From positions 360,884-380,883 of the forward strand of contig JBEWZL010000098.1 in NCBI GenBank assembly GCA_045837725.1: a DNA stretch of 20,000 bases, written 5' to 3'. The DNA comes from Vermamoeba vermiformis. Its lineage: Eukaryota. Numbering within the stretch: position 1 is the stretch's first letter; every line of letters starts with the position of its first letter. Below the pieces are notes generated by a model. It had not been told where the DNA came from. It did not search any database and saw only the letters and a list, made by a program, of their open reading frames with translations. Of the stretch, positions 1-20,000 are shown in pieces. Both the position numbers and the translations under genes were made by a program.

Positions 1-1114
1 TAATTGCACAGCCAACTGAGGTCGATCCAGCAATCGAATTTCGCACGTTTTCTTTATCTTCGTCCATTTTACCAGCTCCAGAAGCGATCGAAAGCACATC
101 TGAGTGACGAACCGATCTGTTTCTTGTATTAGTTACCAATAGAGCGATAGAACGTCACTTACTTAGCAAGGGACAATCTTGTGGCCATCGCTGGTTTGAG
201 CTGTAAGGCGAGAATTAAGTTGTTTGAAAATTCACCAAATAAGGAAATTCCTACCGATTGGGTGATTTCAGCGAGCTTGCCTTCCAGTTCATCAATCTTC
301 AATTGTTTCTCGAAAACTTGTTGCTTTAGCGCTGCAATCTGTTAAACGAAGGGTTAGCCGACGTCCGAAGGCGTGTGTTACAAGTTGACGTACCTCTGGT
401 TCGGATGAGGTGTTAAAGCTCATTTGGTCCAATTCCATCTTCGTTTCTTCCAAGGATTTTTGCAGCGAAGCAATCTGCGATAGTTAGTTTCACTGCCATG
501 GATTACACTATCTAATTTTGTACGTACCTTAGAGTCCTTTAAGTTGACTTGCGCCTCTAAGTGGCTCATTTGATTCTTGTGCAAGGCTTTGAGTTCGCTG
601 AGTTGGTTTGCGTGACGCGCGTGCAAGAGATCAATGTACTTCTTTTTGTCCTCGAGCTGACTCTGCGCAAGAAAACACTAATTAGTCGCTAATCCTATTA
701 ATTATTCTTGATTATACGTACATTAACGCCTTTTAACTGCGCCTCAATTGTCTCTCGACGAGAGACTTCCTTTGTCATGTTTAACTGCCAGTTTTGCTCT
801 GTTTTGTTCAATTTGTTCTCGTACTCCAGAACAGATTCGCTCATAGACTGTATTCTTTCCTTCTCTTTGTAGAGTTCCTGGAGTATTTGTTCTTCTTGTG
901 CCTTAGCTCGTTGAATTTCTGTTTTGTAGTGCGAAATCTGTGACTCGATCGCAGTTGATTTGCGTTCAGTTCGCCGATATAATACATAGATAAATACACA
1001 TTGAAGTATAGCTAAGATACGAATTAGTAATCTAACCAAGCCAGCAATAATGAAATAGTAGATCGATCTTGCAATGTCGAACGTACCAATTATTAGATAA
1101 GTGATTGGTGCCAT
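1..1114 (-). CDS. Membrane-anchored coiled-coil protein, 3' end beyond the window (exons 1114-722, 662-528, 474-394, 338-255, 200-163, 116-<1)
   Basis: Five GT-AG introns of 46-59 nt join the pieces into one open frame. The N-terminus is hydrophobic (YYFIIAGLVRLLIRILAILQCVFIYVLY), followed by E/K/Q/L-rich heptad-like sequence (QIQRAKAQEEQILQELYKEKER, IAALKQQVFEKQLKIDELEGKLAEI). Confidence 0.8.
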
Positions 1115-1439
1115 GTTATGCTATTTTTTGTTTTCAACTATACAGTTATAGGGTATATAAATATTTACAAAGCGTCAGATCTTCGATCGAATGCCAAAGT
1201 CTGACGATTATTTACTGGTAAGCTTAATCACCAATAAATAATGTGTAGTTCTTACTGACGTAGACTAACAAAATGAATCGGGACCGAAAATTTAAATTTT
1301 GAGTTACAACGGCTAGTAGGAAATGCGCGGTTCCGGTCATTCTATTTTTCCGCACGAGTGTTCTACATCCAACGCGCTCGTTGCTTAATTTTGCATTTAT
1401 TGGTCAAAGGCGTGAGAGGAGGCTTCTCTTGGATTAAGG

Positions 1440-3110
1440 ATGGTGATCCAGAACCTGCGTACGTTTCAGAAATTCAATACACTTTCTAGAGGCATTAATA
1501 ACATGACGTAATTTTAAATAATTGGTTTCGTAATTTTATCATCCCGCGCGCTGTAGTTTTGACGGCATCTAAGTTCGATCACATTTTTAATGTTAATTAG
1601 GATCAGCCAATTAAATTTGATACTGTTACTAATATTGTCCTAGATTATATATTTGTTTTTGTATGCACGGTGACCTTAACATCTGGATTTTTGCTCAACA
1701 AACCCGATCTGTCGAACTTAAAAACGTTCAACATTCTAGATTATGGAGCTAAAGGCGACGGTAATACATCAAATACAAGAGCAATTAATATGGCGTTAAT
1801 GGAGGCTCAGCGTAACGGTGGTGGCATCGTACTCGTACCTGAAGGCAGATTCGTCTCTGGCGCGTTTCAAGTGACTGGTCAGAACATCTATTTGCAAGTA
1901 GAGGGCGAACTCCTCGCTACTGACGATGCATCTCAATACTACTGCTTGCCTTCCGTTACCTCCGACACAGGGCCATGCGACTATCCATTCATCGCGGTAT
2001 TGAACGGCAATGGCATCGGTATCATTGGCAGCGGCAGTATTAATGGCGGGGCGAACAGTCCACCCGGTCATTTGGTCGCGAAATATCTGCCCGACTTGAA
2101 CTTCTTGGTGCCGAGTGAATGGAAACTGCCCAATTGCACGGGCTATTCGTGCAGACCCAAGCTGCTCGTGATCAACAACTGCACTAATGGTAAGCACATA
2201 TTGTCATTGCGTAGTCGTGTGCTAACAATTGGTAGCGCTGTTCAAGTCAGTCTCGTTGCTGAACAGCCCGTTATGGACGGTGACTCTCATCGCCTCACAT
2301 CACGTGGAATTTGACGGCGTGAAAATTATCGGCGACAAGCGCTGGCCCAACAACGACGGCATTGATCCAATTTCAGGCTCGTTTATCACCATCAAGAACT
2401 CCAAGATTATTGCGGGCGATGATTGTATTTGTCTCATCACGCACACGCACGAGGACATTCATGACGTGCTGGTTGAAGACTGCGAGTTTGAATCGAGTTC
2501 TGCGGCACTAAAGATTTCAGCCTTTGAATCGACAGCTACTGGTGCCATCTTCAACGTCATGTTCAGAAACAGCAAAATTACTGATACGAACAGAGGTCTC
2601 GCGATTATGCCGCGATGGGGCACTGGTCAGATCTCGCAAGTTGTCTTCGCTAACCTTACGATGGAAACGCATTACTTCTCCAATGCGTGGTGGGGCAGTG
2701 CTGAGCCTATTTATATTACGAGCATTGACTCGTCTACAACGCACTTTTGGAATGGCGCCATCTCTGACATCAAGTTCTACAACGTTACGGCACACAGCGA
2801 GAACGGCATTGTGATCCGCACTCAAAAAGGCAAAGAACAGATCCAAAACGTGTTTTTCGATCAAGTGCGCGTGACTATAGACAAATTCAGTAATATTTCT
2901 AACCCAATGCACGACTGGCGCCCGTCTCCTCCGCCAGAAGTGGAGCCGTGCAAAGTCGATGGCTTTTACATTGACAACGCGGACTACGTTATCATCACCG
3001 ACAGTACTGTCACCTACACGCAACCTTCGCAACCGTTCTATGGCGAATGCATGAATCGCACGAGCTCTGTGCACCACGTTGTCGTTAGCAACTTTTTCTG
3101 CACAGAGTAA
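1440..3110 (+). CDS. Secreted glycoside hydrolase family 28 (polygalacturonase-like) protein, ~479 aa (exons 1440-1458, 1644-2189, 2236-3110)
   Basis: Splicing gives a signal peptide (MVIQNLHYIFVFVCTVTLTSG). The protein has the N-terminal FNILDYGAKGDG..NTRAI..A motif, NSPLWT, and the catalytic NNDGID and GDDCI motifs of GH28 beta-helix enzymes. Intron 2190-2235 (GTAAGC..CTAAC..TAG) joins ORFs 1670 and 2229. Confidence 0.92.
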
Positions 3111-3558
3111 ACTAAATATTGTGGTGAACACAACGCGACAAATGATATCACATCATATCATTTACATCTTTGTTGTAAAATCAGAAGAATTTAGAGTCGA
3201 CATGTAATTTGGCATGACTTTGTAAACCAAGTATCTTCCGAATCCAACAGCGGCCATTACTAAAACGTAGTGCTAAGCCTAAATAGACGAAGTGCTAGGG
3301 CCTTAGGTACATGAAGACAAGTCAATCGGAGTCATAAGAAATTTTCTTTTTTTTTAGATTTTTATTTAATTGCATCTGCGTAGGCTGGGCATCCTGTATA
3401 ATTAATTAAATATTTAATTCGTCGAAATTACAACGCAGCAATATTTAATAAATAATTTTGCTCGTGGAATAATGCGTATTCCAAATTTAAAACTCCAATT
3501 AATTCCCAACGGCCATTTCATTTCAAATCATCAATTCAAGTTGTCAACCACATTTGAT

Positions 3559-6500
3559 ATGAAATTATGTATTTTATTTGTATGCTTGTTATTTATTCAT
3601 GTTGCACGAGCAGTTGGTAAGTTACACTGAAGGCCAGTAAGATCCGTTCAAACTTACCATTACAGATTCAACTCCTGGTTTTATAAAGCAGCAAATACAA
3701 CAGCTCGATAATGCACGACCACGAGCACTAATGTCATATGCAACTGGCACAGCTCATTTAGTGACAGCAATTGAAAACAAACTTGACACGAAACGTAACG
3801 CAGGTACACCACTTTTTTAGTATAACGCAAGCGTGTATGAATTATTTATTAACCAAGTACCAACCGATTTTATTAGTAAAATCAGTGGAGGAAGCGTTGG
3901 TAACATTTTTAGCATCGCATCCGTAGATTGGGATAACCGATCCAAGAAAAGAATTAATAGAAGTTGGAAGACAGGCAGATACCCACATTAAACAATGTAC
4001 TTATAAGCTATCAGCAGGTACCTACGGACATCGTATAATTACATTGAATTATTCCGTCCCTTTCTAATTCATGAATGTTGCAGTTGTACGAAGGTTTAAT
4101 TGTCGAATCAGCTCTATTAAAAGTCACATTTGATGCTGATAACACGGTTGTATCGTCATCCAGCACCATCATTCCGGATCTGAATTTATCTATCGTCCCA
4201 TCGATTATCGAAAAACAGGCCATCGAAATCGCAAGACAAGCGTTAACGAATAGCATGTAGGTTAGGGATAATACAAAGACATCGTATTAACAGTTTTATA
4301 ATAAGGCAATTCGATGCTGGCCATGCGGAGTTGAAGATCTACCGAACGGATCTGGCACGCGGAGTTGCGGGCACAAACCATCTAGCCTATCACGTTATAT
4401 TGAGCTGCATAGAACATCATCGCAAGCACTTTGCCTACGTCGATGCGCACAGCGGTGTTGTGCTTAATGAATTCAATCCCATTCACCACGCACTCAGTCG
4501 CCAAGTCAACCAATACAGCACTTCGCAGCGCTTGTTCAGCGAAGGAGATGCGACACCTGTGAACGGCGAAGTGAGAATGTTGACAGACACGGTGTGTCAG
4601 CAGTACAACATGATGAAAAACGTGGCCGGTTGGCGCAGTTGGGACTTGAGAGGTTCGTAATTTTGTCCTCGTGACACGTGTCATTAACTCACTCGCATGA
4701 CAATAGACGGCACGTTCATTATGGAAGTGAACGTCACTACGAATTCTATGGACGGCTGGGCCTGTCCTAACGCCATGTTCTACATTGATCGCTCGTATTA
4801 TTGCCCTGGCATGGGTATGGTGCCGATGTTACTGGTCACGAGTGGGGTCATGGCTATTCGGACATGGGTAATGCAGCACACAGTACTACCCGAGCACGTC
4901 TCAGAACTAACATTCCGTTATTAGTAGTTGGCTCGGGTGGATTTTTCTATCAATATCAAAGTGGTGCTTTGAGCGAGTCGTTCGCCGACATCATTGGCGA
5001 GACTGTGCAGCTCTTGTGGAAGCAGCCGCGAGAGTACACGCCGAGAACTAATCGTTCGTGCACTTTGACTGACCCCAACCGACGCTGGATCATTGGGGAT
5101 CAGATCACAGGCGTGTTGCCCTTGTTGAACTCCGATGGAAAACTTTACGGTACGTCTGTTAGACTAGCACCAAAAGCAGTGCGTTTAATGTCAATTCAAA
5201 GGTCTCCGTGACATGTACAATCCTAATTGTTACGGTGACCCAGCCACAACTGACGATGAACACGTGTGGTGCAATGGTGCTGATGGCGGTGGAGTGCACG
5301 CTAATTCAGGCATTCCCAACCAAGCCTACGCGTTGTTCACTGACGGCGGTGCATTTAACTCGGCAACGTTTACCGGCGTTGGATTGGTCAAAGCGTTTCA
5401 CATCTACATGCGTGGCTTGTCCAAGCACGTCCCTTCAACGACCTTCAGTCAACACGCTGATTTTGTCATGGCAGTACGTAGTGGAGTAGTGCCACTTGAA
5501 TATGTTCTAATCCGTACTAGGCTTGCAATGAACTCGTCACGAACAATGTCAATCTCACGGATCCATTGACCGGCCAACCTTCTGGCCTAATTGTTAGTGC
5601 AGCTGATTGCTCCACGTTAGGTGCGTTGCATAACGATAATACTGAATGCTCATTCGTATGTTAACTTTAAATTACAGCGGACGTGTTCAGTGCTACTAAG
5701 ATGAAGGCTACATCCTTCTGTGGTAAGTATTAGCGCTTTAACTAGGCGAAGATGATCAGTGCTGATCTCGTTGACAGGTGTCGGTGGAGTGCCAACTCCA
5801 GGTCAAGTCGAGCGAGGTCCATTCCCGTCAGTCATTTTGCCCATTGGTCTGGACAACGTCTATTGGTAAGCCAAGCTCTTCTTTAATTAACCACGAGTAA
5901 CATCGTGCTCAGGGAGACGTCACATTTCCTCGAGTACCAAAATGTTCAGTGCCGCATTGACAATGGAGCATCGTTCAGTGGCGGTGTCTATCAAACACAA
6001 TGGAGCGAGTACTCTTATTGCCCAATGCCCGCGCTAACTGGCGTGCAATCCGTTCAGCTGTACGTTAGCTACAACGGCACTGAGTGGTTTGGTCCCTACG
6101 AAGTTGCAGTCAAAGGTACGCGTAGTGTTGTTAGTCTCGTCATTCGCTTGTTAACAGTTTCCTCACGCAGGTGTTTATCGTGTCAGCTCGTACAATCCGG
6201 GCAGCGGATCATTCGAGGGAGGTACAACGCTCACCATCAACGGCCAGGACTTCATAGAAGGGTTCACTGGTTGCAATCCTGCAGCACAATCAACGAGTGA
6301 TCCTGATTGCGCTGTTTGTTTCTTCGGCACCAGCGTGACCTCCGTTGCAGTGCCAGCGACTGTGGTATCATCCACGCAAATCAAGTAAGACTCGGTGACA
6401 AGTCTTGATTTCGCTCGTTCTTATTCAAGTGACAGATGTACTTCGCCTCCGTGGCAATCTCTCGGCACGCCGGACACGACGATCAGTTTCTCAATTGCAA

Positions 6501-6811
6501 TGAATTACTATTTAGCTCTCGGACCGTTTGAATTCACTTACACTGCACTTGGTAGTAAGTCAGACACTGCTCGACAAAAATATTAACCGTACACAGGTAC
6601 GCCGATAGCACAAGCAGTCAACGTGACACAAACTCCGATTGATTTGTATCCACAACACGGTGCACCAGTAGCGTCAACTGCTCCAGTACCACCAACGGAC
6701 ACGGGCTCATTGCCCAATGTGACTGTCAGTGCGCCACAGGCGAAGCAAGTCTCTTCGGCCTCCAACGTCATTTTCAAGCTGTGGTTGTTAAGTTTTATTA
6801 TGTACATTTGA
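3559..6811 (+). CDS. Thermolysin-family (M4) zinc metallopeptidase with signal peptide, propeptide, IPT/TIG-like domains, S/T/P linker and GPI-like C-terminus; about 13-14 introns; apparent frameshift near 4815
   Basis: Signal MKLCILFVCLLFIHVARA; PepSY-like AYVDAHSGVVL; CPNAMF (NAFW equivalent); HEWGH at 4837-4851; GALSESFADI (third zinc ligand); GGVHANSGIPN. The IPT/TIG signature PGSGSFEGGTTLTINGQDF...IKCTSPP and a hydrophobic end (VIFKLWLLSFIMYI*) follow. Exon structure at 3800-4020 is ambiguous. Confidence 0.88.
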
Positions 6812-6832
6812 TAAACAACTGCTTTACGACGA

Positions 6833-9800
6833 CTAATCGTCTTTTTTCACTTTTTCAACGACTTGCATCATTTTGCGCCACTCGTGCAACAATGAACTGA
6901 TGGTGTACAAAAACGCGTTGAATTTGAGCATTTCAGGGTGCCATTTGTGCAATTGTTTTGAATCGATTTCGTTCTGTCTCGTCATTCGATGACGTTTTTG
7001 AATCTTTTTCAACGTTGCCTTGATTTTCTTCGTGGCGATGTGATACGTGGGATGCAACGCACTCGTCGTCATAAATCCGCGGAATAAGTGCACTTGAATC
7101 TCCGCAATTTTGGAGATCTGTTGGAAGTCCTTTTCTAACGGTTCGAAGACGCCTTTGACCATCTCGGTGCTGAATCCGCCGTGCAGAGCTCCTTCAGCGG
7201 CGCTCAGTAAAAACACCAAGTTCGACATGTGCTCCATGAATGTAATGTACAGGTGTCGCTTCAATTGTCGAAAATACAGTTCTGACTTGGCTTCCTTTAA
7301 CCACCTATTTTCAACATCAGTTGGATAACTCAAAGAAGACATTTCGTAATACTCACTTGCTCTGCACTTGTATCGTCGAATTGAGCTCAGCGACTTGAGC
7401 CGAGACGTCAATGTGATTGATTTGGACTTCAGAGACAGACAGAATTGAGTGCATGATGTCAGCGCACTTCGATATGGTCGTCAAGTAACTTTCTTTCAAT
7501 CGTCTGTACGTTAGAACGGGCCACGGCAAGCTCGTCAGAATACCCAGAATTACACCTAGGAGATGCGTTATGTAAGTCCAAAAATAGCTCTTTTACTTAC
7601 CGGCCAGAATATTCAAGAATCGATACAACACGGTCCAATCCATCCAATTAATATTTGGATACGAGGGATAGGCAATGATCAAGAACGTAAGTACGGCCAC
7701 CACCCTGAAGTAGTCGTTATTAACTAAAGAAATAAATATTGAAGAAGCGACTTACATCGAGTACGGTTTCTGATAGAACTCGCTGTACTGAATGTACGTG
7801 GCAAGGAAGCAGAACACGAATGTGAATGCGATCAATATTGCCAGTGGATTGGCGTACGTGCCTGCAATCATCGTCACGAGTGCCACTGCAGCACCGATTA
7901 ACGTGCCAATAATGCGATGTACGCCGCGCTTGAAAGTGGCCCCAACAGTTGGCGTCAGAATGATAATGAATGTGATCATCGTCCAATACGAGCGCACGTT
8001 GGGCAAGATCATTGCCACTGCACCATCGGTCAGTCATTAATATTGTTTCGCCGTTACACTTACCGTACACGGACGCCACGCTGATGATGGCTCCGAACAC
8101 GGCCAATCTGATCGGATATTTCCACTGTTGATTGTGCCATATTTGTTTGAAGTTTTGCAAGTATTCTTTTTGGGGCTTGCCAGTCTCTGCAATAATTCGC
8201 GTTAGTGCGGAACACGACATTAAAATACTTACTGTTGGTGATGTCTTTGAACACTAAATACACGTCCACGAACGGATACGCCAGGACACTTCTGACCGCG
8301 TAATTGTAGTGCCACGTCTTGTCGTGGTGAATCAGCTCGCTGAACTTGGTGACTGCCTCTTCGAGTGCTTGCAACTTTTCGACGAGCGTGATCAATTGCC
8401 ATAAATAGAAATTCATGCGCGTGACTTCGGCGGTCGGAGTGACTCTCAATTCACCGTTGTACTCCATGTCTTTAATCTGCTCGAGATACTCTTCGGAAAT
8501 TATGTCAATCAAACTGCGCAGCGTTGGTTTTCTGCTCGGATCTGCTGCGAACTTTGGGTGGCCAGCTTCAATGAGCAACATGTCTTCTTCTTCCAGCTTT
8601 GCGTAGTCTTTTGCTTTTGAAGTGAACACGTAGTGAAGTTTGTCGCGTGTAACGTCGACGTGTGCATAAAACTAAATATTAAAATAATTATAAATGAAAT
8701 ATTATAAATTAGTCGTAATAAAAATGAAATATTTAGCAAATGAGTAATTTAATTCGTCTTACTCGGTTCTGCAGCAATTCGATCTGCGGCATTAATTTCG
8801 GCAATATATCGTGCACAGTATTACTTCGTTTTACGAGGCCGTGTCCCAACGATATCTTCATCGTCACCAAGTTCGCGACGAGTGAGTCGAGTTTCTTGAT
8901 GATCTCTTCTTCTGCAGCGAAGATTTCGGGATTGACCCACCTGGCAGGATATCAATAAATGAAAATAAATAGCGTAGAGTATAATAAAAATACGATACCT
9001 CTCTAATTTGCTCTCCTCTAACATCGAATACAGCCAACGAATATTCTTGATTAATTTGTTCGAAATGTGCGTCAGTTTTCGCGTGTCTGCATCGCGTTCC
9101 AACTCGGCTTTCAAAATTTCTTTGTCCAATTCAGTCATTGCATCGCCGTGCACGATGAGCTCTTCTAATTTTTTGATTTTCATCGTCAATCTCGGCTTCT
9201 TTGACAGGCGCAGCAAGATCAATAACATTTTATTGCACCGCTTCAGTGTCAACGAGAATTCTCGCGGCAACTTGATCACCCACCGCGCTGGAAATAAGAG
9301 CAAGGACACGATGCAGAATATATATCCGATGACAGACAGCATGACGTACTGCACTGGCGGCGAGTAATAGTAATTCCGCTGAAAGTCAAACGGAGGCGGG
9401 AAAATCAGCACTAGCAGCAAACTCCAGCCAATGAATCTGACGCAAGTGACATGCAACAGTTTTGGATCTGCGGCGACGTACAATAATCCGATCAACGCTG
9501 TCCAAAAAGTAAACATTGCGATCCCGATCCAGACATTGTCGTGAGTGATCGGGTAAAATGCTAAATTTGGAATTGCTGCAACAATACCTGTATAATAATG
9601 AATAAATAACTTACAAATAAATAATATTTATATTTACGAACCAGAAGCCAGCAAATATTTAGCGGATTGGATAGAGCCACCGAGGCTATGACTGGCGGAC
9701 ATCAAGATCCCGACTAAAATTGTCATCCAAACGGGCCAAGCCCCAGCGGGATCTAATATAACGTAAGTTTGTGGTACGAACCAAAATACGGACGATGCTA

Positions 9801-9972
9801 ATATGGCACTGGTGACACGCAATGCCGTCCGAAGTCGAATGAGCGAGATCGAACAGTGCTTCGTGAGATGAATTTTATCTTTGTAAAGCCTGCAATATTT
9901 AAGTGATAATTAGTTATTAGACGTGAAAACGATTTCCATAACTTCGATCGAGCGTTTATTTTGCCGGCAAAG
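6833..9972 (-). CDS. FUSC/ALMT/aromatic-acid-exporter-like multi-pass membrane transporter (multi-exon; 5' end uncertain, extends at least to 9889)
   Basis: Two transmembrane blocks, each followed by a helical soluble region. The motifs WTMITFIIILTPTVGATFKRGVHRIIGTLIGA and YRFLNILAG..LGILTSLPWP are typical of the FUSC/ALMT superfamily. Several ~50-nt GT-AG introns link ORFs 9634, 8821, 8060, 7752 and 6833. Confidence 0.82.
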
Positions 9973-10993
9973 CTTTATTATTATTATTTTTATTGATAAC
10001 CGCTCGAAGTATGTAAACTCACCGTAGTAAAATAAATTACTAATAATTAAATTTACCTTTTCTTGGGTTCCATACGGTAAGTGCAAAGTTAAGGATCTGC
10101 TTGGCTTGGCGCGAATTGACGCGTGGTAGGCTGAATCACTGTTACTTATTAATTCAACAATTGTTGTCTCATGCGAGGTTTTGAACGTGGATAAACAAGT
10201 AAAATAAATTCCCGTCCAATTTTCAAAGGACGGACGTGCGCCGTCCCAAGTTCTTAAAATCCGACAAACTGTGCACAACATGAGAGATTTTGTATATGGA
10301 TGTTACAAGCTCGATGCGTAAAGCTCCTCGTTGAGACTGTAATTCCGGCCTTGATTCCGAGGTAAATTCAAACTAATTCTAAAAATGAATGGTTTAAATC
10401 GTTTAAAAATACTAGAATTATTTTGATTAATTTTCCATCATTTCTAGGCTTCAAAACTGCATCATCCAAAATTTTGGACCGAATCTGCCCAATCAGGCTA
10501 ATTCGAGCAAACACGCGCCTTGTGCAAATCTTCGGGACTATTTTTAATACGAAAGAAATCATCACGGCGAAGAGGTTCAGCCGTGTAAGCGCGTAAGTTT
10601 ATTATAACCTATTTTGATCTATTTATTAAACAAATATTGATTGATAATACGCCAACACTGACTGCTTATAGATCAGGATTGGGCGTGCGGTTGATGGGAA
10701 GCCAACATAATTTAATAAGGGGCGTCAAGTTCAGGCCACTTCAGTGATTCCAAACGTGTCGCGTTAGGCGAAGGTACTTCCTTCCAGATATTTTAAGTGC
10801 CGAAGGTTCGGGAATCGAGCAAAGAATATTCTAGGTGACATTTTAATGCGCTGTCAAAGTGAGTAGTTGAAAGATTTTTCTTCTTCTTTCAGAACTTGCG
10901 CGTCCTCTTGTGAATCAAAAAATATACAAAGTGATTCGCAATTAACAAATCATTTTATATTTAATTGTTAACAACGCTACCAGCAATATCATT

Positions 10994-12163
10994 ATGTTGG
11001 CGAAGTCCATCGTTCTTGCCTTCGTGTTGCTCTGCGGATCTACTTGGTCGACCCGAACCTTTGAGCGAACCGTAAGTATTACGCTATTTATTACACTTAA
11101 AATATACTGATGTTTATTAGAAACTTTATACGACCCGAAACAGCCCAGCGTTTCAATGCCCACATTTAATTGGAGACATTGCTGGATCCGGTCGAAATGT
11201 TTCTGCCCTTGACGGCAATGGCGCTAGCGTGCGCATATTCCAACGTCAATCGGACTCTAACGATTTTTACAACAATGTCACCAGTATGTCAGTGGATGCG
11301 GGAGGCTACGTCATCGACACTAACAGCAAATGGTTCTCGTGCTTGCATCCGTCCGGCTACTCTTTACTATGGCAGGTCAGTTCGCATGGCTTCGTCTACA
11401 ACGAACAGAAGTTTCAAACTGGTGGAATTTTCTCTCTACTTTTAACGGATGGCAGCTACATCACAGTAGTGACGGCTAATTCATTGGACACATATCGCTA
11501 CAACTCTTCTTATTTATGGAGCCTTGACAACTCGTTTGCATTCCAGAGGATCCTGCTTTACCCCTGTTTGGAATTTCAACAACCGAAGATTCTTTTGCAA
11601 TCCTTGATGCGGTCTATGCCAGAGTTCAATTATACGCTAGACGTGGTTGGTCGTGGTATTATATGGACGTTGTGCCTTTAGTCACCACTTTGGGCATTCC
11701 TCGAGTTATTGTTCCCATCAGCAATGGACGCAAGACTTTGATCGTCTCTTATGCTAATACCGTTGAAACTCCTTCAATTCCTTCTGGTGCTGTCGTCGTG
11801 CACACGAAAACAATTGGATACTGGCAACCCTCTGTCATATTAGCGACAGATCTCAGTATCAAACCAACCGCTGAATTTGGATCTGCACTTCTAGCACTGG
11901 ATGATAAAAGAGTTTTTATATCAGCACCTAAAGCAGGATATGATGCCGATCATCAAACTGGTGGCCAAGTCTTCTTATTGAACCAATTATTGAATGGCAC
12001 ATGGGCAGTGACAAGAGAGATTGTAACAACAGAGCAGCCCAAAGTGTTGTTTGGCACTGGCCTTGCACGAACTGACATGGATGTTATCATTGCTGCTGGC
12101 CAAAGTACATTTGCCCAGAATTATTGCTATTTGTACACTGTGCCGTTTTATCAACTTTCATGA
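10994..12163 (+). CDS. Secreted beta-propeller-like (FG-GAP-like) protein (exons 10994-11071, 11121-12163), with an apparent frameshift near 11541
   Basis: Signal peptide MLAKSIVLAFVLLCGSTWS; intron 11072-11120 (GTAAGT..TAG); FG-GAP-like segments FGSALLALDDKRVFISAP...GQVFL and FGTGLARTDMDVIIAA. The frame changes between ORFs 11229 and 11663 with no usable intron. Confidence 0.65.
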
Positions 12164-12982
12164 TTTTAAAATGATCTGAAAATTATCATTGAATAAAACT
12201 GTTAAATTAAAACAACAATTAATGAATTGAGTCACACAACCTGCCTTTGGTACCAACTTAGTGGTAAAGATACATGTGTGGTTAATTATTTTCTGAAACC
12301 AAAAATGCAAAAGTTTATTAAAATAAACTAAAACACAGTGCTTAGGATACTATGAGTCCCTAGCAACTTTTCAATTGATTTTCAATACAATCAATTCTCA
12401 ACAACAGAGCCATTCTTGGTTCATTGACATTGGCATTGTTCTTTTTTAGTACATTTTTGTAAGATTTGTTTCCAATGACAGTTGCACTCATTGCAAATGA
12501 TCTGAGGAAATTTTACTTTCAGGTTCAACTAAAGATTGTCCATCAGATAACTGTAATGGATGGTTATGGAACCTGTGGAAAGTTGTATTCCTCTTTAATT
12601 TGGTGATTGACCTTGGCCCACACATCAAGGATGAAAATGAAGAAACTTTCAAGTATGGTACCTTCCATTGGTTGCTTTCATTTGCTGTTTTTGACTGAAA
12701 GATGAAGATTAGAATAGAGTTAAAATAGACATGATTCAAGCCACTTACATTGGATATGGCAAGGTCCACGAGTCTCAGTCCTGAAGAAATTCAATTTTTC
12801 GAAGAAATGTTCGGAAACTGTAATAATTCATACAACTAAATTAAATAAATAGTACGTTAAAAACAAACAGAGCATGCTAGAGAAAAAACAAAGTTTATGA
12901 AAAAGAATTTTGCATATGAAAAAGATGTATTTATTGTAAAACAAAACCTGCTACAGGCAAAAAGTTTTACAAGTCAAATGCC

Positions 12983-13890
12983 CTACTTGGCATTAGATTT
13001 GGACTTCTTGGTGAAGTTTGTAGGTGACGAAGGTTCATCACGTTTGCGCTTTTTGGAAGTTGCCGGGGTTTCATCCATGATGCCAGGCACATAAGGAGTC
13101 TCAGGCAAATCCTCATCCACGGCCATCTTAGCAGGAGTGTCAGGCAGTCCCAGTGGCTCATCATCTTCATCACCTTCTTGCACTTTGTTTGTAACAATCT
13201 CAAACAAAGTGTTTTGAAGGGCTGTGGCATCTTCTTGACTGGACAAGCGTGAGGAAATGAACCTTGAAACATGCTGGCATGCCACCTCCTTGTTGTCGGT
13301 AAGCATGAAACCAAGGTAGGTAGCTGTCATGTTGACGCAAGCAATGTAAGATGCTGCCGAGCACTCGTTGAAAACAATGACAAAAGGGGCAGGAGGAGCA
13401 AAGGCCTATCTATAAGTCAGCAAACGAAAGGTGGTGAAAAAAAGAAACTTACCCGAATAACAAACTCAAACATTTCAATTGGAGGCTGCCTTGGATACAT
13501 AGGAGGTGCAGCAGTGGAAGCTCTTGCACGCAAGTGCTCTTCCTGTGTTGGTGCTTTGAAGGTACCATGAGACCAGTATTGACTTCTGTGGCGTGCCCCA
13601 TCCAAATCTTCATCATTAAAGTGTGGCTGGCCACCTTTCACCTTGAGAAAGTAGAAGTCCCAGCAAGTTGCTGCAGGGCGGTCTTTTTGAAGGACCCGCG
13701 CAGGAGGATACGACATCACTCCAGTGTACTTGAAGTCGAACTCCAAAGTATTTTCCTTGGCGGATAGACCAGTGAAAATAGTTGGGGAGTCTGCTGGCTC
13801 AGCAATAATCACAACCCTGCCATTTTCGAGGACAGACTTCATCATTGCATTCCAATGGGCGTTAGAAATTCTTCCAGTGCAGTTATTCAT
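12983..13890 (-). CDS. Orphan protein of ~286 aa with an acidic low-complexity C-terminus and a basic NLS-like motif (exons 13890-13453, 13405-12983; may extend 5' through upstream exons)
   Basis: A 47-nt phase-0 intron at 13406-13452 (GTAAGT..CTGAC..TAG) joins ORFs 13417-13890 and 12983-13330 in frame. The C-terminus reads EGDEDDE...SKKRKRDEPSSPTNFTKKSK, and AATAAA follows on the minus strand near 12930. No family recognised. Confidence 0.7.
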
Positions 13891-14010
13891 ATATACTACA
13901 GGGCTTGGCCAAACAGGGCTAGCCCTAAAAATTATCCAAAAAGTTTTGTAAAGTCAAACTATACTGGTGGTTTTTCAACCAAGAGTTTGACATTGAGCAA
14001 GAGTTGTAAA

Positions 14011-14130
14011 GTGCTAACGAGAGTTGCCGAGCACTAACGAGAGTTGCCGAGCACTAACGAGAGTTGCCAAGCACTAACAAGAGTCGCCGGGCACTAACGA
14101 GAGTCACCAAGTGCTAACAAGAGTTGCCGT
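14011..14130. repeat. 20-bp minisatellite, 6 copies (consensus GCACTAACGAGAGTTGCCGA)
   Basis: Six consecutive 20-mers read directly, plus a degenerate partial copy at ~13999-14010. Confidence 0.95.
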
Positions 14131-14269
14131 GAGAACACTAATAAATAAAACATTTAAACAGGCAAACATATTTAAAGATCATTTATTCTTTCTATTGTTA
14201 CAATAACCATTACTAAAAAGCTAAAAATAAAGAGTTAGCTACAGTTAAAAATTAAAAGAGAGATGATGT

Positions 14270-14703
14270 AAAAAAATTCATCAAAAACTGCATGACCATG
14301 CTGGTCATGAACTAAGAAAAATAAAGTCCAAAACTTCATGACCACACTGGTCACGAACTAAAAAATTAAAGTCCTACGAGGTCGTCTCCATGGAGAGACG
14401 ACATCTGAAAAAAAACTAAGTCCTGCGAGGTCGTCTCCAGCGGGAGACGATGTTAAAAAAAACTAAGTCAAAAACTTCGTGACCGCACTGGTCACGAACT
14501 AAAAATTAAAGTCCTACGAGGTCGTCTCCACAGGGAGACGATGTTAGAAAAAAACTAAGTCCAAAACTTCATGACCACACTGGTCACGAACTAAAAAATT
14601 AAAGTCTCGCGAGGTTGTCTCCCTAAGGAGACGATGTATGAAAAAATTAAGTCCGGCAGAGGTTGTCTCCCTATGGAGACGATGTCGGAAAAAACTAAGT
14701 CCT
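14270..14703. repeat. Array of nine ~44-50-bp hairpin units of two types, in the order A A B B A B A B B, with a shared A-rich linker
   Basis: Type A, TTCRTGACC-N5-GGTCAYGAA, at 14291, 14335, 14476 and 14568. Type B, TYGTCTCC-N4-GGAGACGA, at 14381, 14431, 14522, 14615 and 14663. The linker AAAAA(C/T)TAA(A)GTC lies between units. Confidence 0.93.
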
Positions 14704-15011
14704 AAACTAACTTACCTTTGGCCGTATGGTTTGTAGCCAGTTGAGGTATGCCTCAACGCACCGAAGGTTGTAACGGAACCACAGAGCGAAAGGTATCTGC
14801 TGAACGAGCAGGACTTGGGAAATTCGTTAGTTAGATGTGGAAAAATTAATTCGAACTGGCTTACCAGCTGCTGGAGGGTTGTTCAAAGTAGTGAAGATAT
14901 GCCAACTTTCTAATGTGCGTGCACGTGTATTCGCGGGAGCCAGCTGCCCTAAACAAACAAAAGTTCAGTCAGATGCCGCGCACTCGAAAATTATTTTAAA
15001 AATTTAGTGCG

Positions 15012-15175
15012 AGTCCTAGGAGGTCGTCTCCACCGCGGAGACGACCTACAAAAAAAACAAAGTCGTAGGAGGTCGTCTCCACCGTGGAGACGATCTACGA
15101 AAAAAACAAAGTCGTAGGAGGTCGTCTCCCTAAGGAGACGATGTAAAAAAAATAAAGTCCAGCAGAGGTCGTCAA
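15012..15175. repeat. Second array of type-B hairpins (3 full copies plus 1 truncated, 49-bp period)
   Basis: AGGTCGTCTCC-N4/5-GGAGACGA at 15021 (11-bp stem), 15070 and 15119; truncated GAGGTCGTC near 15166. Confidence 0.92.
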
Positions 15176-15350
15176 ACAATCATACCCTTGGCCATAATGG
15201 GTTGTAGTGGGCCACGATGCTCCACAGCAGGTTGTAATGCCATGACAGGAGCCGTAGGGCGAAAGGAAATTCGAATGAGCTTCGAACGTTAGATCAAAAT
15301 TTGAACTCAAGTAAACTTAGCTTACCTCACACAAGTTGCACGGTGCCAAT

Positions 15351-15417
15351 CCAGCAGTACCTAAGTTGTTCATGAGGTGGCCAGCAGTACCTAAGTTGTT
15401 CATGAGGTAGCCAGCAG
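15351..15417. repeat. 30-bp tandem duplication (2.2 copies)
   Basis: CCAGCAGTACCTAAGTTGTTCATGAGGT(G/A)G occurs twice, followed by CCAGCAG. Confidence 0.95.
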
Positions 15418-15926
15418 CACTGCACAAGCAATAAAAATTAGATGCCGCGCATCTAAAAATTACGGATTTAAATTTGTTTGCTTACCGAATGCTGTGTACT
15501 CGTGGGCTCCCACCTAATTGCATTCTCCTTTGATTTGAGACACGGTAGAAACCAACAGTGAGTTCGAAGAACAGTTAGTATCCCGGACCCGCACCGATCA
15601 GCTGAAAACGAAATATTAGCGTAAATTAAAAATATTCTGAATTTAATTAATGTTAGGGAAACTTACCTCAGTGCACTGCGCACCGTACAAGCACATATTG
15701 GGAAACAGACAGCCGATCGGCACCCAGAACCTTGGCCACAAAGCAGCTGTGTTGCGTTGCGTTCTACAACGCAGTAAACAAGGAAACAATATTCAATAAA
15801 ATTAAATTCACGACCATTGTGGTGATCGTGGTGCTGGTGGTTGTTTATCCAAGTTAGTTTCGCGTGTTAAATTTGTCCGCTGTGCCAGGATTTATCCCAG
15901 CACAAACAATTTTTGGCAGCACGTGC

Positions 15927-16404
15927 TGTCGACGCACGTCGGTTTTCATTGTCGACGCACGTCGGCTTTGGCCTAAAAAAGGAAGTGACCGTTATTCATT
16001 CAGCGTTTATTAAAACTTTGACAGAGCAATGCAACAAATCGACCACACGGGTCGATTTATTTATTTATTACAGCTGTAATAAACAGAAAGTAACGCGCCG
16101 CGGCATCAGAGCCGTTCCAGCGCGAGTTATTTGGATGGAGAGCTGATGCAAAATGTCGCATGCGTTATTTCGCATCAGTAATTCAACAAATCGACCACAA
16201 GGGTCGAAATACTTATTGTTGTGAGCTATTAACAGCGGAAAGTGACGCGCCACGGTCGCAATGGCCGTTCAGCGCGAGTTATTTTGATGGAAACCCGATG
16301 CGAATCCGGATTCTTAGTTAAATCGACCACAAGGGTCGTATTATGGATATCATTTAGTTCCTGTGTATATATCCGTCACGCTCAACGATATTCAGCGTCG
16401 TTGC
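15927..16404. promoter_or_regulatory. Putative bidirectional promoter with repeated palindromic sites
   Basis: Lies between the divergent spliced units. Contains two copies of GTCGACGCACGTCGG (~15928, ~15951), TCGACC-ACA(A/C)G-GGTCG at 16039, 16191 and 16323, and GCCGTT(C)CAGCGCGAGTTATTT twice. Function is inferred from position. Confidence 0.5.
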
Positions 16405-16429
16405 TGCGCGATATACGAGTCAGCAATTT

Positions 16430-18485
16430 GTTCGCGATCGGATGACGCGTTGGACGCATCGAAATAATTCGTAAGTTATTTCATATTAATAACAATAATG
16501 AATATTATGCAATGAATGTGTCCTTTTGAAATTTAAAATTCAAGATAAAAAAATTAATTGCATTATTCGATCGAGCTTTCCGCTCGAACCAAAGTAAAAT
16601 AATTATTTATATTATTGTTTATATATTTTATTAATCGTAATTTTACAGGTTATTATGAAGAAGGCGCGAACCCAGACCGGATGGGTCGATCGAAAACTCG
16701 ATGCGTGTCAGGCCAAGTTTTCTTGACCGGTAAGTGATTTAATATAGTTAATTAAATACTAAACGGTCTAACATTGTTTCTTTAGGTCTTAACAAAAGTA
16801 CAGAACGGATCTCGATCGCGAACTTCACGCGATAAAAAATTTATAGAGAAGGGTAAGTTATTAAGATGATTAATATTTATCGATATTACTGCAGTATTAT
16901 TAACGTTTTATAATTACAGATACGTTCTAATTGGCTTGTGAATGTTTTTACAGTCCACGCAAGTCCACGATCCGTACACGTAGCGATCCGTTAAAATTGC
17001 TTAGTCTTTAAGCAAATAGTTTTAAAGGTAAGTAAATCGATAAATATATATATTTATATATATTTCTAATGTTTAATTAATAGCAGTGTCCGATTACCGT
17101 CAAGTTTTCGCGATCCGAGTCAAATGGATGCCGCGACGGTAATTCAGCAACATGCCTTAGTTTTTAATGGTAAGCTTGTAAAGACGTTTATTACGATGTG
17201 TTCTAATACAATGTAAACCAGGAAGGGTTAACATGACCCGTGAAGAAACATCAACGAGTACGAATCCGCGATCCAGCAGCGGATTCAACTTTTAATCAAA
17301 GGCATCGAGTGCGCCAACGGTAAGTATAACGCGTTATACATTATGAATATCTAACGGTTGTCTGCCCCAGATTTGCTCACGGAGCTGACTACACGGATCG
17401 AACGATCTCGATCCGTACCACGTTAGTAGAGCGCGTCTAACGCGAAAAAGGTAAGTACAACGCATTATTTATAATTGTTATATTGTAATGATTCATTTAA
17501 TTTCGATAGAATAACAGTCTTCACGGACTTAACGGATCCGCGAGATCCAGTATGGTGCGCGTTATTACTCAGCAATGGTAACGCTGTATATCGCGGTAAG
17601 TCGCTAATTCAATAGTAGATGCAACGTGCTAACACGTTATTTAACAGAACTTATCAAGCCCTTGAATAGTTAGTCAGTTGGCGCGGATCGATCCAGCGAG
17701 ATCGGATCCGAAAAAATTGAATGGCCTTATTCAAAGGCTCTTAAGGTAAGTAAAGATCGTTTAATGATATATTTAATATAATATTTAACGCTAACTTTAA
17801 TTATAGAACTTCTGGCGATGCGATCACGGATCTTAGGCGCGATCTGACCCGCGAAGAAAAGTCAGTCAGATCGCTAACAAATCTCACAGGTAAGTCTCAT
17901 TATTGTTTATTATGAATACTAACATTATTTTCTTACTAATTAGAAACGAGTGAAGGGTTATTTTACAAGAACAGACGCGATCGCCACAGCTCACGGATCA
18001 AGATAAATTTTCACGTAGCGCATTGACCGCGCTCCAAGTAAGCAAGATAAAGTTTAATATGCTTATAATTACGTACTAACGTTATTATTAAATTAGTGGA
18101 GACGTGCTGTGATATTTGAATCAGTGATGAGTGATAGTAATGCCTGTAGCATCAAAGCGTTCCAGCGCGTAATTACGGATGGAGACGATGGCTAAATGAT
18201 CGCACTTCTTTTCCTTAGCAACTTAACAGATCGACCACAAGGGTCGTATTATTATTATTTTGATTAAAACCAAGTTGTAAGTTTATTTAGCAATTTTATG
18301 CGTTTGCTAACACCCTTTTAGTAGGGAATTCAAGGTTTTTACATTGCCGTTCCCGAGTTGATTCCTCACTCCAACGGATCGAGATTTTGCCATTTTTAGA
18401 AGGCATCTCACGAGCAATTTTGACTATTTAACTTGTAAAATTAATTGTAAAAGGACTTTAAATAAAAGCGTTTCGCATAAATAAA
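16430..18485 (+). ncRNA. Putative 13-exon non-coding RNA built from GATC-centred hairpin modules (copy 1)
   Basis: Introns at 16471-16648, 16730-16785, 16853-16919, 17028-17083, 17170-17221, 17320-17370, 17451-17509, 17596-17647, 17746-17806, 17890-17943, 18038-18096 and 18277-18321. All start GTAAG and end YAG; most have CTAAC/CTAAT/TTAAC branch sites. Exon 17648-17745 and segment 16954-17027 have stops in all three frames. AATAAA at ~18461 and ~18480. The ends are approximate. Confidence 0.72.
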
Positions 18486-18535
18486 ATTGATAAAAATCTC
18501 GCCGGAGGGAATTACAAAGATCTGGATGCGTTATT

Positions 18536-18768
18536 TTTATTAAAACTTTGACAGATCGACCACAAGGGTCGTCATATTTATGTTTTATTGATAATTAACA
18601 TATGGTAGTTACGCGCCACGGTTGGAGCGGCCGTTCAGCGCGAGTTATTTTGATTTGAAGTCGATGCGAACTTGGATTCGCGTCAGATCGACCACAAGGG
18701 TCGAATTATTTATAGTATTTAGTTTAGTGTATATATTGTACACGCCCAACGATATTCAGCGTCGTTGC
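18536..18768. repeat. Diverged direct repeat of the 16006-16404 promoter-like module
   Basis: Shared blocks in the same order: TTTATTAAAACTTTGACAGA, TCGACCACA(A/C)GGGTCG, ACGCGCCACGGT, GGCCGTTCAGCGCGAGTTATTTTGAT, TCGACCACAAGGGTCG, CAACGATATTCAGCGTCGTTGC. Confidence 0.9.
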
Positions 18769-19179
18769 AGCGCGAGGCGTCAGCGTGCATCTTTCGGTCG
18801 CTAAATCTACGAACAGTAAGTTAAAATTTTGATGGCGGTCGTAAGATATAACTTACTTCCACCATTTATAATAATAGAATAACGTTAAACAGAGGTCAAT
18901 TTTTTTCCTATTTTTAGAATCAATCGGATCGAACTTAGTGCTCGAAAATTAATAATAAAACTAATCAAAAACGATAATATAGACCCTATTATTAAATATT
19001 AATCGGTTTTTTTATTATAGAACCCGACACGAAAAAATTACCACGATCGAAAGTTTTATTTTCTTTCGATTCGTTGGATCTCGACCACCAATGGTCGTTA
19101 AATGTTATTCAGTACTGTTTCGTTCGTTTCCTGCGTTGGCTGGTATTCTCACTGCTCGCTCGTGGGGTCGCTAGCTCGA

Positions 19180-20000
19180 TGGCGCGATCGGATGCGTGGA
19201 ACGCGTCCAAATAATACGTAAGTAATTATTTTAATATATTAGATATTAGAACGACGCAATGAATGCGTCGATTTCGTATTTAAAATTATAGTTAAAGTAT
19301 TAAAAATTTAAATTCACGGATCGAGTTTAGTGCTCGATTTAATTTCGAAATTACGCTATAAATATTATTATACTAATATTTTAACGTTTATTATGGCAGG
19401 GATCGTGCGATTGAAGAGGTCTCGAACCGCGTCCGATCAGTCGCTGCTTAGATCCGTGAAGTGTACACAGAGAACCGCAGGTAAGCAATTCGATACTATT
19501 TAATTGATAATTTAAACCATGCTAACACTTCATATTAGGCAAACCAACGCAAAAAACGGCGGATCTAGATCGCGGACTTGACGCGATAACAGCTATGGCT
19601 CGTCTCGTCAGTTGCTCTTGGTAAGGATAAAAATTCATAGAAAATGATGACCAATAACATTCAATAGAATGCTATATGATAACAGCGCGATTATTCAGCA
19701 GGTGAACCGCTTCGATCCAGCGCTGCTCTGGATCCACAAATTTCGCTTGAATGGCTCATTCATTATAGAAAGTGAGTAAAACGCGTTCTATATAATACTA
19801 TAATCGCTAATACTTTCACTTTTTAATTATAGGAGTTGATTGGTGCGATAATTGGAGATCAAACAGCGCGCGATCCGATCTCGGCGAAGTACGCAATCTG
19901 TACCCTAAGGCCGCAGAACGCTTCGTAAGTTAATATATAGCTAGAAGGTAGATGATGTTAACGATTCTTATTATTATTTAGGCTGTAATCGCTCACGGTG
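19180..20000 (+). ncRNA. Second, paralogous multi-exon hairpin-module RNA (copy 2), truncated by the window end
   Basis: Introns at 19218-19399, 19481-19538, 19621-19667, 19772-19832 and 19925-19981. The end of exon 1, the long first intron and the exon-3 core match copy 1. A possible extra upstream intron starts at 18816. Confidence 0.7.

Follow-up and report, generated by a model that had tools for sequence, protein, structure and literature searches.

In most annotated long non-coding RNAs (lncRNAs), exons are few, splice signals are weak and no internal logic can be recognised. Repeat-module lncRNAs, such as NORAD with its repeat units, Xist with its A-repeat and the roX RNAs with their boxes, carry about ten short-motif repeats in or beside small stem-loops, with A/U-rich linkers between them, and are thought to work by multivalent protein binding. 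Host genes of small nucleolar RNAs (snoRNAs), of the GAS5/UHG type, give multi-exon spliced transcripts with many short exons and no conserved open reading frame (ORF), and they carry the snoRNAs in their introns. Short, G/C-flanked self-complementary motifs on small hairpins, which could pair between molecules, are found as single sites in a genome or mRNA at the retroviral dimerisation initiation site (DIS) and in a loop of the oskar 3' untranslated region (UTR). Here we describe a locus that shares features with each of these systems, in a 20,000-nucleotide stretch of Vermamoeba vermiformis DNA (contig JBEWZL010000098.1, positions 360,884 to 380,883 of the forward strand; hereafter the window). 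The locus, which we call unit A (window positions 16400–18490, + strand), is very probably a member of a tandemly duplicated family of spliced non-coding RNA genes, the other units being a paralogous unit C from 18727 onward and two units, U1 and U2, on a contig designated L001. The best explanation overall, which we put forward tentatively and rate just short of an even chance, is that this is an lncRNA family whose exons are GAUC-palindrome modules, together serving as a multivalent protein- or RNA-binding platform.

Unit A is made of 13 exons and 12 introns of 45–178 nt. Every donor is GTAAG, beginning at the first position of each intron listed below, every intron ends in AG, and nine of the twelve have a branch-type motif CT[AG]A[CT] (CTAAC/T-type) 12–22 nt upstream of the acceptor. 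Exons 2–11 measure 67–108 nt, intron 1 is 178 nt long and introns 2–12 are 45–67 nt; G+C content is 12–39% in introns and 38–52% in exons, and successive donors are spaced 123–175 nt apart, with a mean of 145 nt. An initial annotation, made from the sequence alone, had proposed an array of 12 GTAAG introns with internal exons of 67–108 nt, and this anatomy stands, an AG acceptor following each donor at 45–178 nt. The contrast that it drew with the donors of nearby coding genes does not hold for the adjacent minus-strand coding gene (12400–15800), which has at least six GTAAG(T/C) sequences at ORF ends, its donors being read from a by-eye gene model; the related units also use the donors GTGAGT, GTATGT, GTAACC and GTAATA. 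In the following lines X11 is a sequencing run of a close relative under another organism label, whose RNA status is only guessed by the index, and fold z is a score against dinucleotide shuffles.

16363–16411, + strand: TATA-like stretch and conserved promoter-proximal or 5'-leader motif (..CAACGATATTCAGCGTCGTTGC..), with an 88% identical copy at 18727–18775 and also found at 280–301 of L001
16400–16470, + strand: exon 1, its 5' end predicted from the TATA distance; X11 contig 1 joins its last 22 nt to exon 2
16471–16648, + strand: intron 1, 178 nt, with a TTTAAAAT box and the hairpin TCGAGC-loop-GCTCGA (16568–16588); absent from the X11 contig
16649–16729, + strand: exon 2, 81 nt, one GATC; a spliced X11 contig carries 16657–16730 with 4 differences over 74 positions
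16730–16785, + strand: intron 2, 56 nt, removed in X11 contig 1, where the first ∼16 nt of exon 3 are replaced
16786–16852, + strand: exon 3, 67 nt, two GATC, the best conserved internal exon, with the core GGATCT..CGCG-loop-CGCG
16853–16919, + strand: intron 3, 67 nt, with an alternative acceptor at 16953; an X11 contig joins 16852 to 17085, with ∼99 unaligned letters at the place of exon 4
16920–17027, + strand: exon 4, 108 nt, two GATC, 3' hairpin at 16997–17015
17028–17083, + strand: intron 4, 56 nt, recognised by its splice signals
17084–17169, + strand: exon 5, 86 nt, one GATC, with a 9-bp stem spanning 17093–17143; 17085–17170 is in an X11 contig, 4 differences in 86
17170–17221, + strand: intron 5, 52 nt, bridged by no contig
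17222–17319, + strand: exon 6, 98 nt, one GATC in the loop of an 8-bp stem (17262–17286), fold z −2.2; X11 contig 2 has 2 differences in 98
17320–17370, + strand: intron 6, 51 nt, left out precisely at GT..AG in X11 contig 2
17371–17450, + strand: exon 7, 80 nt, three GATC, 9-bp stem at 17393–17416, 3' hairpin at 17421–17442, fold z −3.1; 3 differences in 79 in X11
17451–17509, + strand: intron 7, 59 nt, likewise left out precisely at GT..AG in X11 contig 2
17510–17595, + strand: exon 8, 86 nt, two GATC, hairpins at 17534–17548 and 17559–17584; 1 difference in 88 in X11
17596–17647, + strand: intron 8, 52 nt; an X11 contig passes from 17595 into 18 letters like the start of exon 9 (2 changes)
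17648–17745, + strand: exon 9, 98 nt, four GATC, hairpins at 17684–17710 and 17717–17734, fold z −4.1; homolog of unit C exon 4
17746–17806, + strand: intron 9, 61 nt; X11 contig 3 joins 17739 to 17823, with 23 letters replaced
17807–17889, + strand: exon 10, 83 nt, four GATC, 10-bp stem at 17839–17874, fold z −2.8
17890–17943, + strand: intron 10, 54 nt; X11 contig 4 passes from 17886 into letters like the start of exon 11
17944–18037, + strand: exon 11, 94 nt, two GATC, 3' hairpin at 18017–18033
18038–18096, + strand: intron 11, 59 nt, predicted
18097–18276, + strand: exon 12, 180 nt, with a partial copy of the upstream repeat described below, including its H1 hairpin (18232–18246)
18277–18321, + strand: intron 12, 45 nt, predicted
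18322–18490, + strand: exon 13, with two AATAAA signals (18461–18466 and 18480–18485) and a predicted 3' end

The feature that distinguishes the exons is the tetranucleotide GATC, of which exons 2–11 of unit A each have at least one and together hold 22 in 881 nt. Dinucleotide shuffles of the same exons give 5.3 ± 2.1 and not one of 1000 reaches 22, and no other 4-mer is as over-represented there. The rule holds independently in the relatives, with 13 GATC in the exons of C against a shuffle mean of 4.1 and 25 in those of L001 against 9.6, neither count being reached in 1000 shuffles. GATC is present in 26 of the 27 exons tested across units and is centrally placed: when the short exons of the four units are pooled, 35 of 48 occurrences have relative positions of 0.3 to 0.6 along the exon (binomial P about 1e-9). 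Density amounts to 20–25 per kb in exons (25 in unit A) compared with 5.3 per kb in window positions 1–12400, and the whole intron set of each unit contains 2. The longer ACGGATC occurs 14 times in the window where 1.8 are expected, with 11 of the 14 within 16805–19457, and the CpG observed/expected ratio is 1.7 in unit A exons compared with 0.98 in the coding sequence of the window. Counts, shuffles and position within exons thus all bear out the central GATC cluster that had been noticed in exons 2–11. Judged from these sequence comparisons, the clusters appear to be selectively maintained while the rest of each exon diverges beyond alignment.

That the exons are joined is seen in the X11 contigs, which match unit A exons and are without introns. 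A contig of 283 nt links 17221–17318, 17370–17448 and 17508–17595, so that introns 6 and 7 are cut out exactly at GT..AG, and then runs into the 18 exon 9-like letters with their two changes. Other contigs link exons 1–2, 2–3, 3–5 (across the unaligned stretch at the place of exon 4), 9–10 and 10–11. The aligned exon pieces differ from the window at 0–6 positions each (4/74, 4/86, 2/98, 3/79, 1/88, 0/79, 5/92 and 6/58), and introns 1, 2, 8, 9 and 10 are removed with diverged exon ends, short end stretches being replaced. Direct support therefore extends to seven of the 12 introns, with indirect support for two more (introns 3 and 4), and the proposal of a spliced multi-exon transcript is borne out by the contigs of this relative, with the RNA status of the run a guess. 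Two X11 contigs diverge after exon 10 and could represent isoforms or paralogs. A search of sequencing runs listed DNA runs that contain the stretch and no RNA run among them; three RNA-seq runs under the species label of these DNA runs (X12–X14) gave 6, 9 and 14 reads, which lie only partly on the stretch and cover only short repeated motifs; short matches to the leader motif are found among these reads.

The tandem family with its conserved 5' part had no place in the initial annotation. Its second member in the window begins 88% identically to the leader of unit A and is cut by the window end:

18727–20000, + strand: paralogous unit C, with exons 1a (18776–18815), 1b (19021–19217), 2 (19400–19480) and 3 (19539–19620)
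19668 (or 19686)–19771, + strand: unit C exon 4, followed by exon 5 (19833–19924) and exon 6 (from 19982)

Scanning a metagenome collection with the leader motif returned one contig, L001 (2964 nt), which holds the two further tandem units U1 and U2; these have the 5' exons, the intron-1 hairpin, exon 3 and the central GATC clusters seen in the window units. Pairwise local alignment of exons, for which the 99th percentile of the shuffled null is 23, gives scores of 97–174 for exon 1b of C, U1 and U2 and of 30–54 for exon 3 of all four units (36–54 for exon 3 of A against its homologs in C, U1 and U2). Further scores are 41 for A exon 9 against C exon 4, 58 for exon 4 of U1 against that of U2, 36 for A exon 1 against U1 exon 1a and 41 for A exon 1 against the 3' end of exon 1b of C; A exon 1 is also homologous to the 3' end of exon 1b in U1 and U2. 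By the same alignment the remaining exons have no alignable counterpart between units. The TTTAAAAT box and the TCGAGC-loop-GCTCGA hairpin recur in all six homologous long first introns, from two organisms, and these introns measure 178–206 nt compared with 45–67 nt for the others. Two of the six hairpins keep their stem through a G-U pair, which would mismatch on the opposite strand. A composite exon-1b pattern had no match in genome and viral contig collections, and the leader motif none in the viral contig collection. Between the two L001 units (1591–1873) the leader motif is missing; an exon-like stretch with an H1-type hairpin ends there in a GTAATA donor, and an acceptor follows just before exon 1b of the second unit. 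The two units may be joined in one transcript, or the second may use another promoter.

We also considered how far the exons fold. The six central stems and five 3' hairpins that had been listed before are all present with complementary arms at the coordinates given above; the stems of unit A are 5–10 bp long, with some GATC in stems and some in loops. Exons 2–11 have a mean fold z of −1.61 as read on the + strand, and their reverse complements one of −1.36; the summed minimum free energy of the unit A exons is −226 kcal/mol compared with −218 kcal/mol for the reverse complement. As controls, introns score −0.23 and 85-nt coding chunks −0.32 (sd 1.15, three of 20 below −2). The idea that every exon is a multi-hairpin module survives in part: the listed stems exist and four of the ten exons (6, 7, 9 and 10) fall below −2, but the other six do not beat shuffles, nor do the exons of paralog C. 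On all these scores the robust conserved feature is the central GATC cluster and not the fold. A consensus fold of exon 1b from C, U1 and U2 contains four compensatory pairs among the three sequences, and on this modelling a shared fold of exon 1b is plausible. Complementarity between exons, at 9-mers or longer, comprises a few matches of 10–12 nt (E1–E3, E7–E13, E4–E8 and E6–E12) amid much noise.

The spliced RNA predicted from the exon model of unit A (1301 nt) has 26, 22 and 21 stops in its three frames and a longest ATG-initiated ORF of 39 amino acids; exons 4, 6, 7, 9 and 11 are closed in all frames, exon 9 within its first 30 nt, and U1 has 10–18 stops per frame. A score of codon usage, with 16 coding ORFs from the window as the training set, ranges from −0.25 to −0.37 for the frames of unit A and from 0.02 to 0.27 for the coding ORFs. 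No reading frame common to homologous exons of the units was found, and the insertions and deletions that separate one unit from another, or the window from X11, are not, or not all, multiples of three. Short upstream ORFs from a conserved ATGGCG vary in length and sequence between units, and that ATG is absent from unit A. With stops in every frame and no ORF common to the units, the view that the exons cannot form an ORF is upheld, and the family is non-coding, with a small residual chance of a decayed or very fast-evolving coding origin. On that alternative, to which we give a slight probability, each exon of the units would encode one protein repeat; unit A would then count as a pseudogene that is transcribed, and codons such as Asp-Pro, Asp-Leu and Arg-Ile would have left the GATC excess behind. 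Several exons do have one open frame, short peptide-like similarities recur in such frames, among them D-L-x-R-D/E-L in A exon 10 and in each of the four units' exon 3, and one frame of unit C has only 2–3 stops. The open frames do not chain across the exons of unit A, however, and in A, U1 and U2 the homologous exon 3 has stops in the frame that is open in C; exon 1b of C and U1 likewise has stops in the only frame common to them. The open stretch in C depends on the acceptor chosen for exon 4: with one it extends over 134 codons to the window end, which 134 of 2000 shuffles (6.7%) also reach, and with the other the longest stretch is 77 codons compared with a shuffle mean of 88. Two frames are open in exon 5 of C, an indication of low stop density rather than of coding. 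The codon-usage score is 0.00 at best, none of nine open per-exon peptides matches Pfam above threshold (best E-value 0.07), and all 12 splice sites of unit A are intact, which would be unexpected for a decaying pseudogene.

The main rival to an RNA function is an element that acts as DNA, in which the GATC and CpG palindromes would be sites of binding or modification (for example by a dimeric DNA-binding protein or through GATC adenine methylation), spaced by the AT-rich introns at a nucleosome-like period, while the transcript would be a by-product or would keep the region open. Several observations are in keeping with this: the stems are perfect DNA palindromes with no advantage on the + strand, the mean donor-to-donor spacing of 145 nt is nucleosome-like, CpG is in excess in the exons, and related palindromic hairpins of the GACCAC..GGTC type are also present between genes and, on the opposite strand, inside introns of the neighbouring gene. 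We nevertheless regard it as improbable, since it leaves unexplained both the 12 near-consensus introns, kept across units and in another organism, and the spliced contigs. GATC is moreover concentrated in exons and centred on them rather than set at a fixed DNA period, no tandem-repeat signal appears near 145 nt, and an RNA from the + strand agrees with the G-U pairs that the conserved stems of intron 1 and exon 1b contain. Equally improbable in our estimation is that the exons matter little, the gene being a host for the conserved first-intron element or acting through transcription and repeated splicing. In favour of this are the box and hairpin kept in six of six long first introns, a family conserved at its 5' end, with later exons unalignable between units, and splice signals near consensus; yet no Rfam family, snoRNAs included, matches the intron, the other 11 introns are too short for a small RNA, and the central GATC clusters in nearly every exon are left without explanation. 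The least probable of these alternatives, raised in the initial annotation, is that the transcript serves as a small-RNA precursor, or that its exons form a set of cassettes to be skipped or to be back-spliced into circular RNAs. Some exons do have hairpins, and the two X11 contigs that continue differently after exon 10 could be read in this way, but stems of 5–10 bp fall short of canonical miRNA-type precursors and of the length of known substrates of Dicer or Drosha type, and box C/D, H/ACA, tRNA and miRNA models give no match. No back-splice or exon-skipping joint is present among the listed X11 contig joints, contigs being a form of evidence that drops rare forms.

For the multivalent platform itself, a number of observations weigh on the other side. 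Unit A exons fold about equally well on the reverse complement, so that the stems amount to plain Watson-Crick DNA palindromes with no strand signature, and folding is inconsistent across the family, with a mean z of −0.04 for the exons of C and −0.76 for those of L001. Covariation in exon 3 is thin (one compensatory pair among four sequences). The seven listed single-base differences between the window and X11 split both ways, two keeping a pair, two breaking one and three being unpaired, with two destroying a GATC, and so neither favour nor disfavour the predicted pairs or the GATC motifs. Introns 5, 11 and 12 are not confirmed by contigs, and 3 and 4 rest on a contig with an unaligned exon 4 stretch; X11 carries its RNA label by guess, and its contigs may stem from a paralog rather than an ortholog. 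Runs X12–X14 are essentially without depth on the locus, yet their depth is zero on the neighbouring coding gene too. The 5' and 3' ends of the transcript are predicted. Given a family of spliced non-coding RNA genes, a putative function as a multivalent platform is a possibility that we rate as somewhat less than likely.

The locus appears to give rise to an RNA polymerase II transcript that is many times spliced and probably polyadenylated; it would start behind the TATA-plus-leader motif and end at the AATAAA signals near 18461–18485, to yield an RNA of ∼1.3 kb without a reading frame. The family layout consists of a conserved 5' part (leader motif, exon 1, the long hairpin-bearing first intron and exons 2–3) and then a variable string of exons of ∼80–100 nt, each later exon carrying a central CpG-rich cluster of GATC palindromes, many of which can form stems of 5–10 bp, often with a second small hairpin after them. 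On the platform explanation each exon would constitute one GAUC-palindrome site, and the mature RNA would present about ten equivalent sites. As GAUC, CGAUCG and GGAUCC are self-complementary, such a site could form a local stem, pair within or between molecules, or be read by a dimeric protein; it might thus be bound by a sequence- or structure-specific, possibly dimeric, RNA-binding protein, or be paired with copies of itself. Gain or loss of exons between units would alter the number of sites, and A exon 9, which corresponds to C exon 4, may illustrate this. A bolder and rather unlikely version makes the exon the unit of valency, the spliced RNA being a programmable "velcro" that multimerises or captures a dimeric protein binding GAUC hairpins. 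The number of sites would then be set by exon gain and loss between tandem paralogs and possibly by alternative splicing, and this would be a gene architecture undescribed for any known lncRNA.

Several further elements surround the units. Upstream of unit A lies a repeat that also touches its exon 12:

16036–16344, + strand: an upstream repeat of ∼152 nt in two copies, with the hairpin ATCGACCACAAGGGTCG (H1) as the boundary of each, and with a third copy at 18553–18709, upstream of unit C

The repeat contains a CGCGCC...GCGCG hairpin, a U-rich stretch resembling an Sm site and a third hairpin that varies in sequence with its stem kept; a partial copy at 18140–18250 lies inside exon 12. T-rich runs follow the H1 hairpins, and H1 is found in other flanking contexts in reads and contigs of X11 and X13–X14. 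Single H1 matches in an actinobacterial metagenome-assembled genome (L002) and in a viral contig (L003) lie inside G+C-rich coding sequence and were set aside as chance. Possible identities of the ∼152-nt repeat are a gene for a small structured RNA, an element like a terminator or insulator, and a mobile repeat. Between it and the start of the minus-strand gene, a palindrome, GTCGACGCACGTCGG, is repeated twice (15915–15960).

The minus-strand gene is itself rich in repeats. Arrays of ∼48-nt units with a GGTCGTCTCC-loop-GGAGACGA hairpin, interleaved with TGACCACACTGGTCA hairpins, occupy 14250–14700 and 15010–15160, in what appear to be its introns, and a 20-nt unit (AGAGTTGCCGAGCACTAACG) stands in eight tandem copies at 13980–14139, inside the gene, with a branch-site-like CACTAAC on the + strand. 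Its 5' part has an exact-like 30-nt tandem duplication (15351–15410) and two similar short exons ending in ..PLWPR (15183–15293) and ..PYGQR (14715–14882), and this 5' region seems to be built from duplicated mini-exons. At 12983–13953 (− strand) it is coding, and its 178-amino acid exon (13417–13953) is without a Pfam domain and has a single relative, P0001 (336 amino acids, 61% identical), among proteins of 313–2000 residues, which suggests, on this sequence comparison, a poorly sampled lineage; protein-atlas and homolog searches with it returned neither a family nor a taxon. Further away, on the + strand, a glycoside hydrolase family 28 (polygalacturonase-like) gene and a thermolysin-type M4 peptidase gene stand side by side (1601–3110 and 4247–5569), a pair that is unusual for a eukaryote and possibly of foreign origin.

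Searches for known families returned nothing for unit A, in line with the first reading of the locus, which had recognised none. Rfam release 15 gave two sub-threshold chance matches in the window, mcrA inside intron 3 (25.4 bits, gathering threshold 57.6) and MIR4374 at 15017–15101 (23.2 bits, gathering threshold 105), the latter on the hairpin pair of the ∼48-nt arrays, and none in L001; snoRNA models matched neither the window nor L001. ARAGORN found no tRNA or tmRNA gene, the B-box consensus with up to one mismatch occurs twice where 2.5 matches are expected, no telomere-type repeats are present in the window, and no box C/D features were seen by eye. We rejected a tandem satellite, as TRF finds no array with a period near 145 nt and the exons of one unit are not mutually alignable above the null, except weakly, and a transposable element, as no ORFs are present. 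Searches of the full-text literature turned up no GATC-centred multi-exon non-coding RNA.

What the locus offers is a rare lncRNA family with a sequence rule that can be stated and mutated, and related units occur as a pair in a second organism. Should the GAUC clusters serve for binding or pairing, the family would allow exon-level encoding of valency to be studied in a natural system; should they act on DNA instead, exon-intron structure would be linked to a periodic DNA signal. Either way, such loci will be missed or mis-called by gene finders.

Set beside the described systems, unit A shares with the repeat-module lncRNAs a motif enriched in each of its repeat units, about ten in number and in or beside small stem-loops, a likeness of functional analogy and not of homology. 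It differs from NORAD, Xist and roX in that the sequences are not similar, every module forms an exon of its own between real introns, the motif is a cluster of self-complementary GATC palindromes, and the gene belongs to a tandem family with a conserved 5' part. With the snoRNA host genes it has in common the multi-exon spliced transcript, the many short exons and the missing conserved ORF; here, however, 11 of the 12 introns are only 45–67 nt long and contain no snoRNA match, and the non-random feature resides in the exons. The resemblance to the retroviral DIS and the oskar loop lies in the self-complementary motifs, which are single sites there, whereas here one to four occur in every exon, some of them in stems. 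To our knowledge, an architecture of one module per exon with a palindromic motif is not a described feature of either repeat-module lncRNAs or snoRNA hosts. As far as these analogies reach, the locus appears to work most like the repeat-module lncRNAs and superficially resembles a snoRNA host gene, while being a member of neither class.

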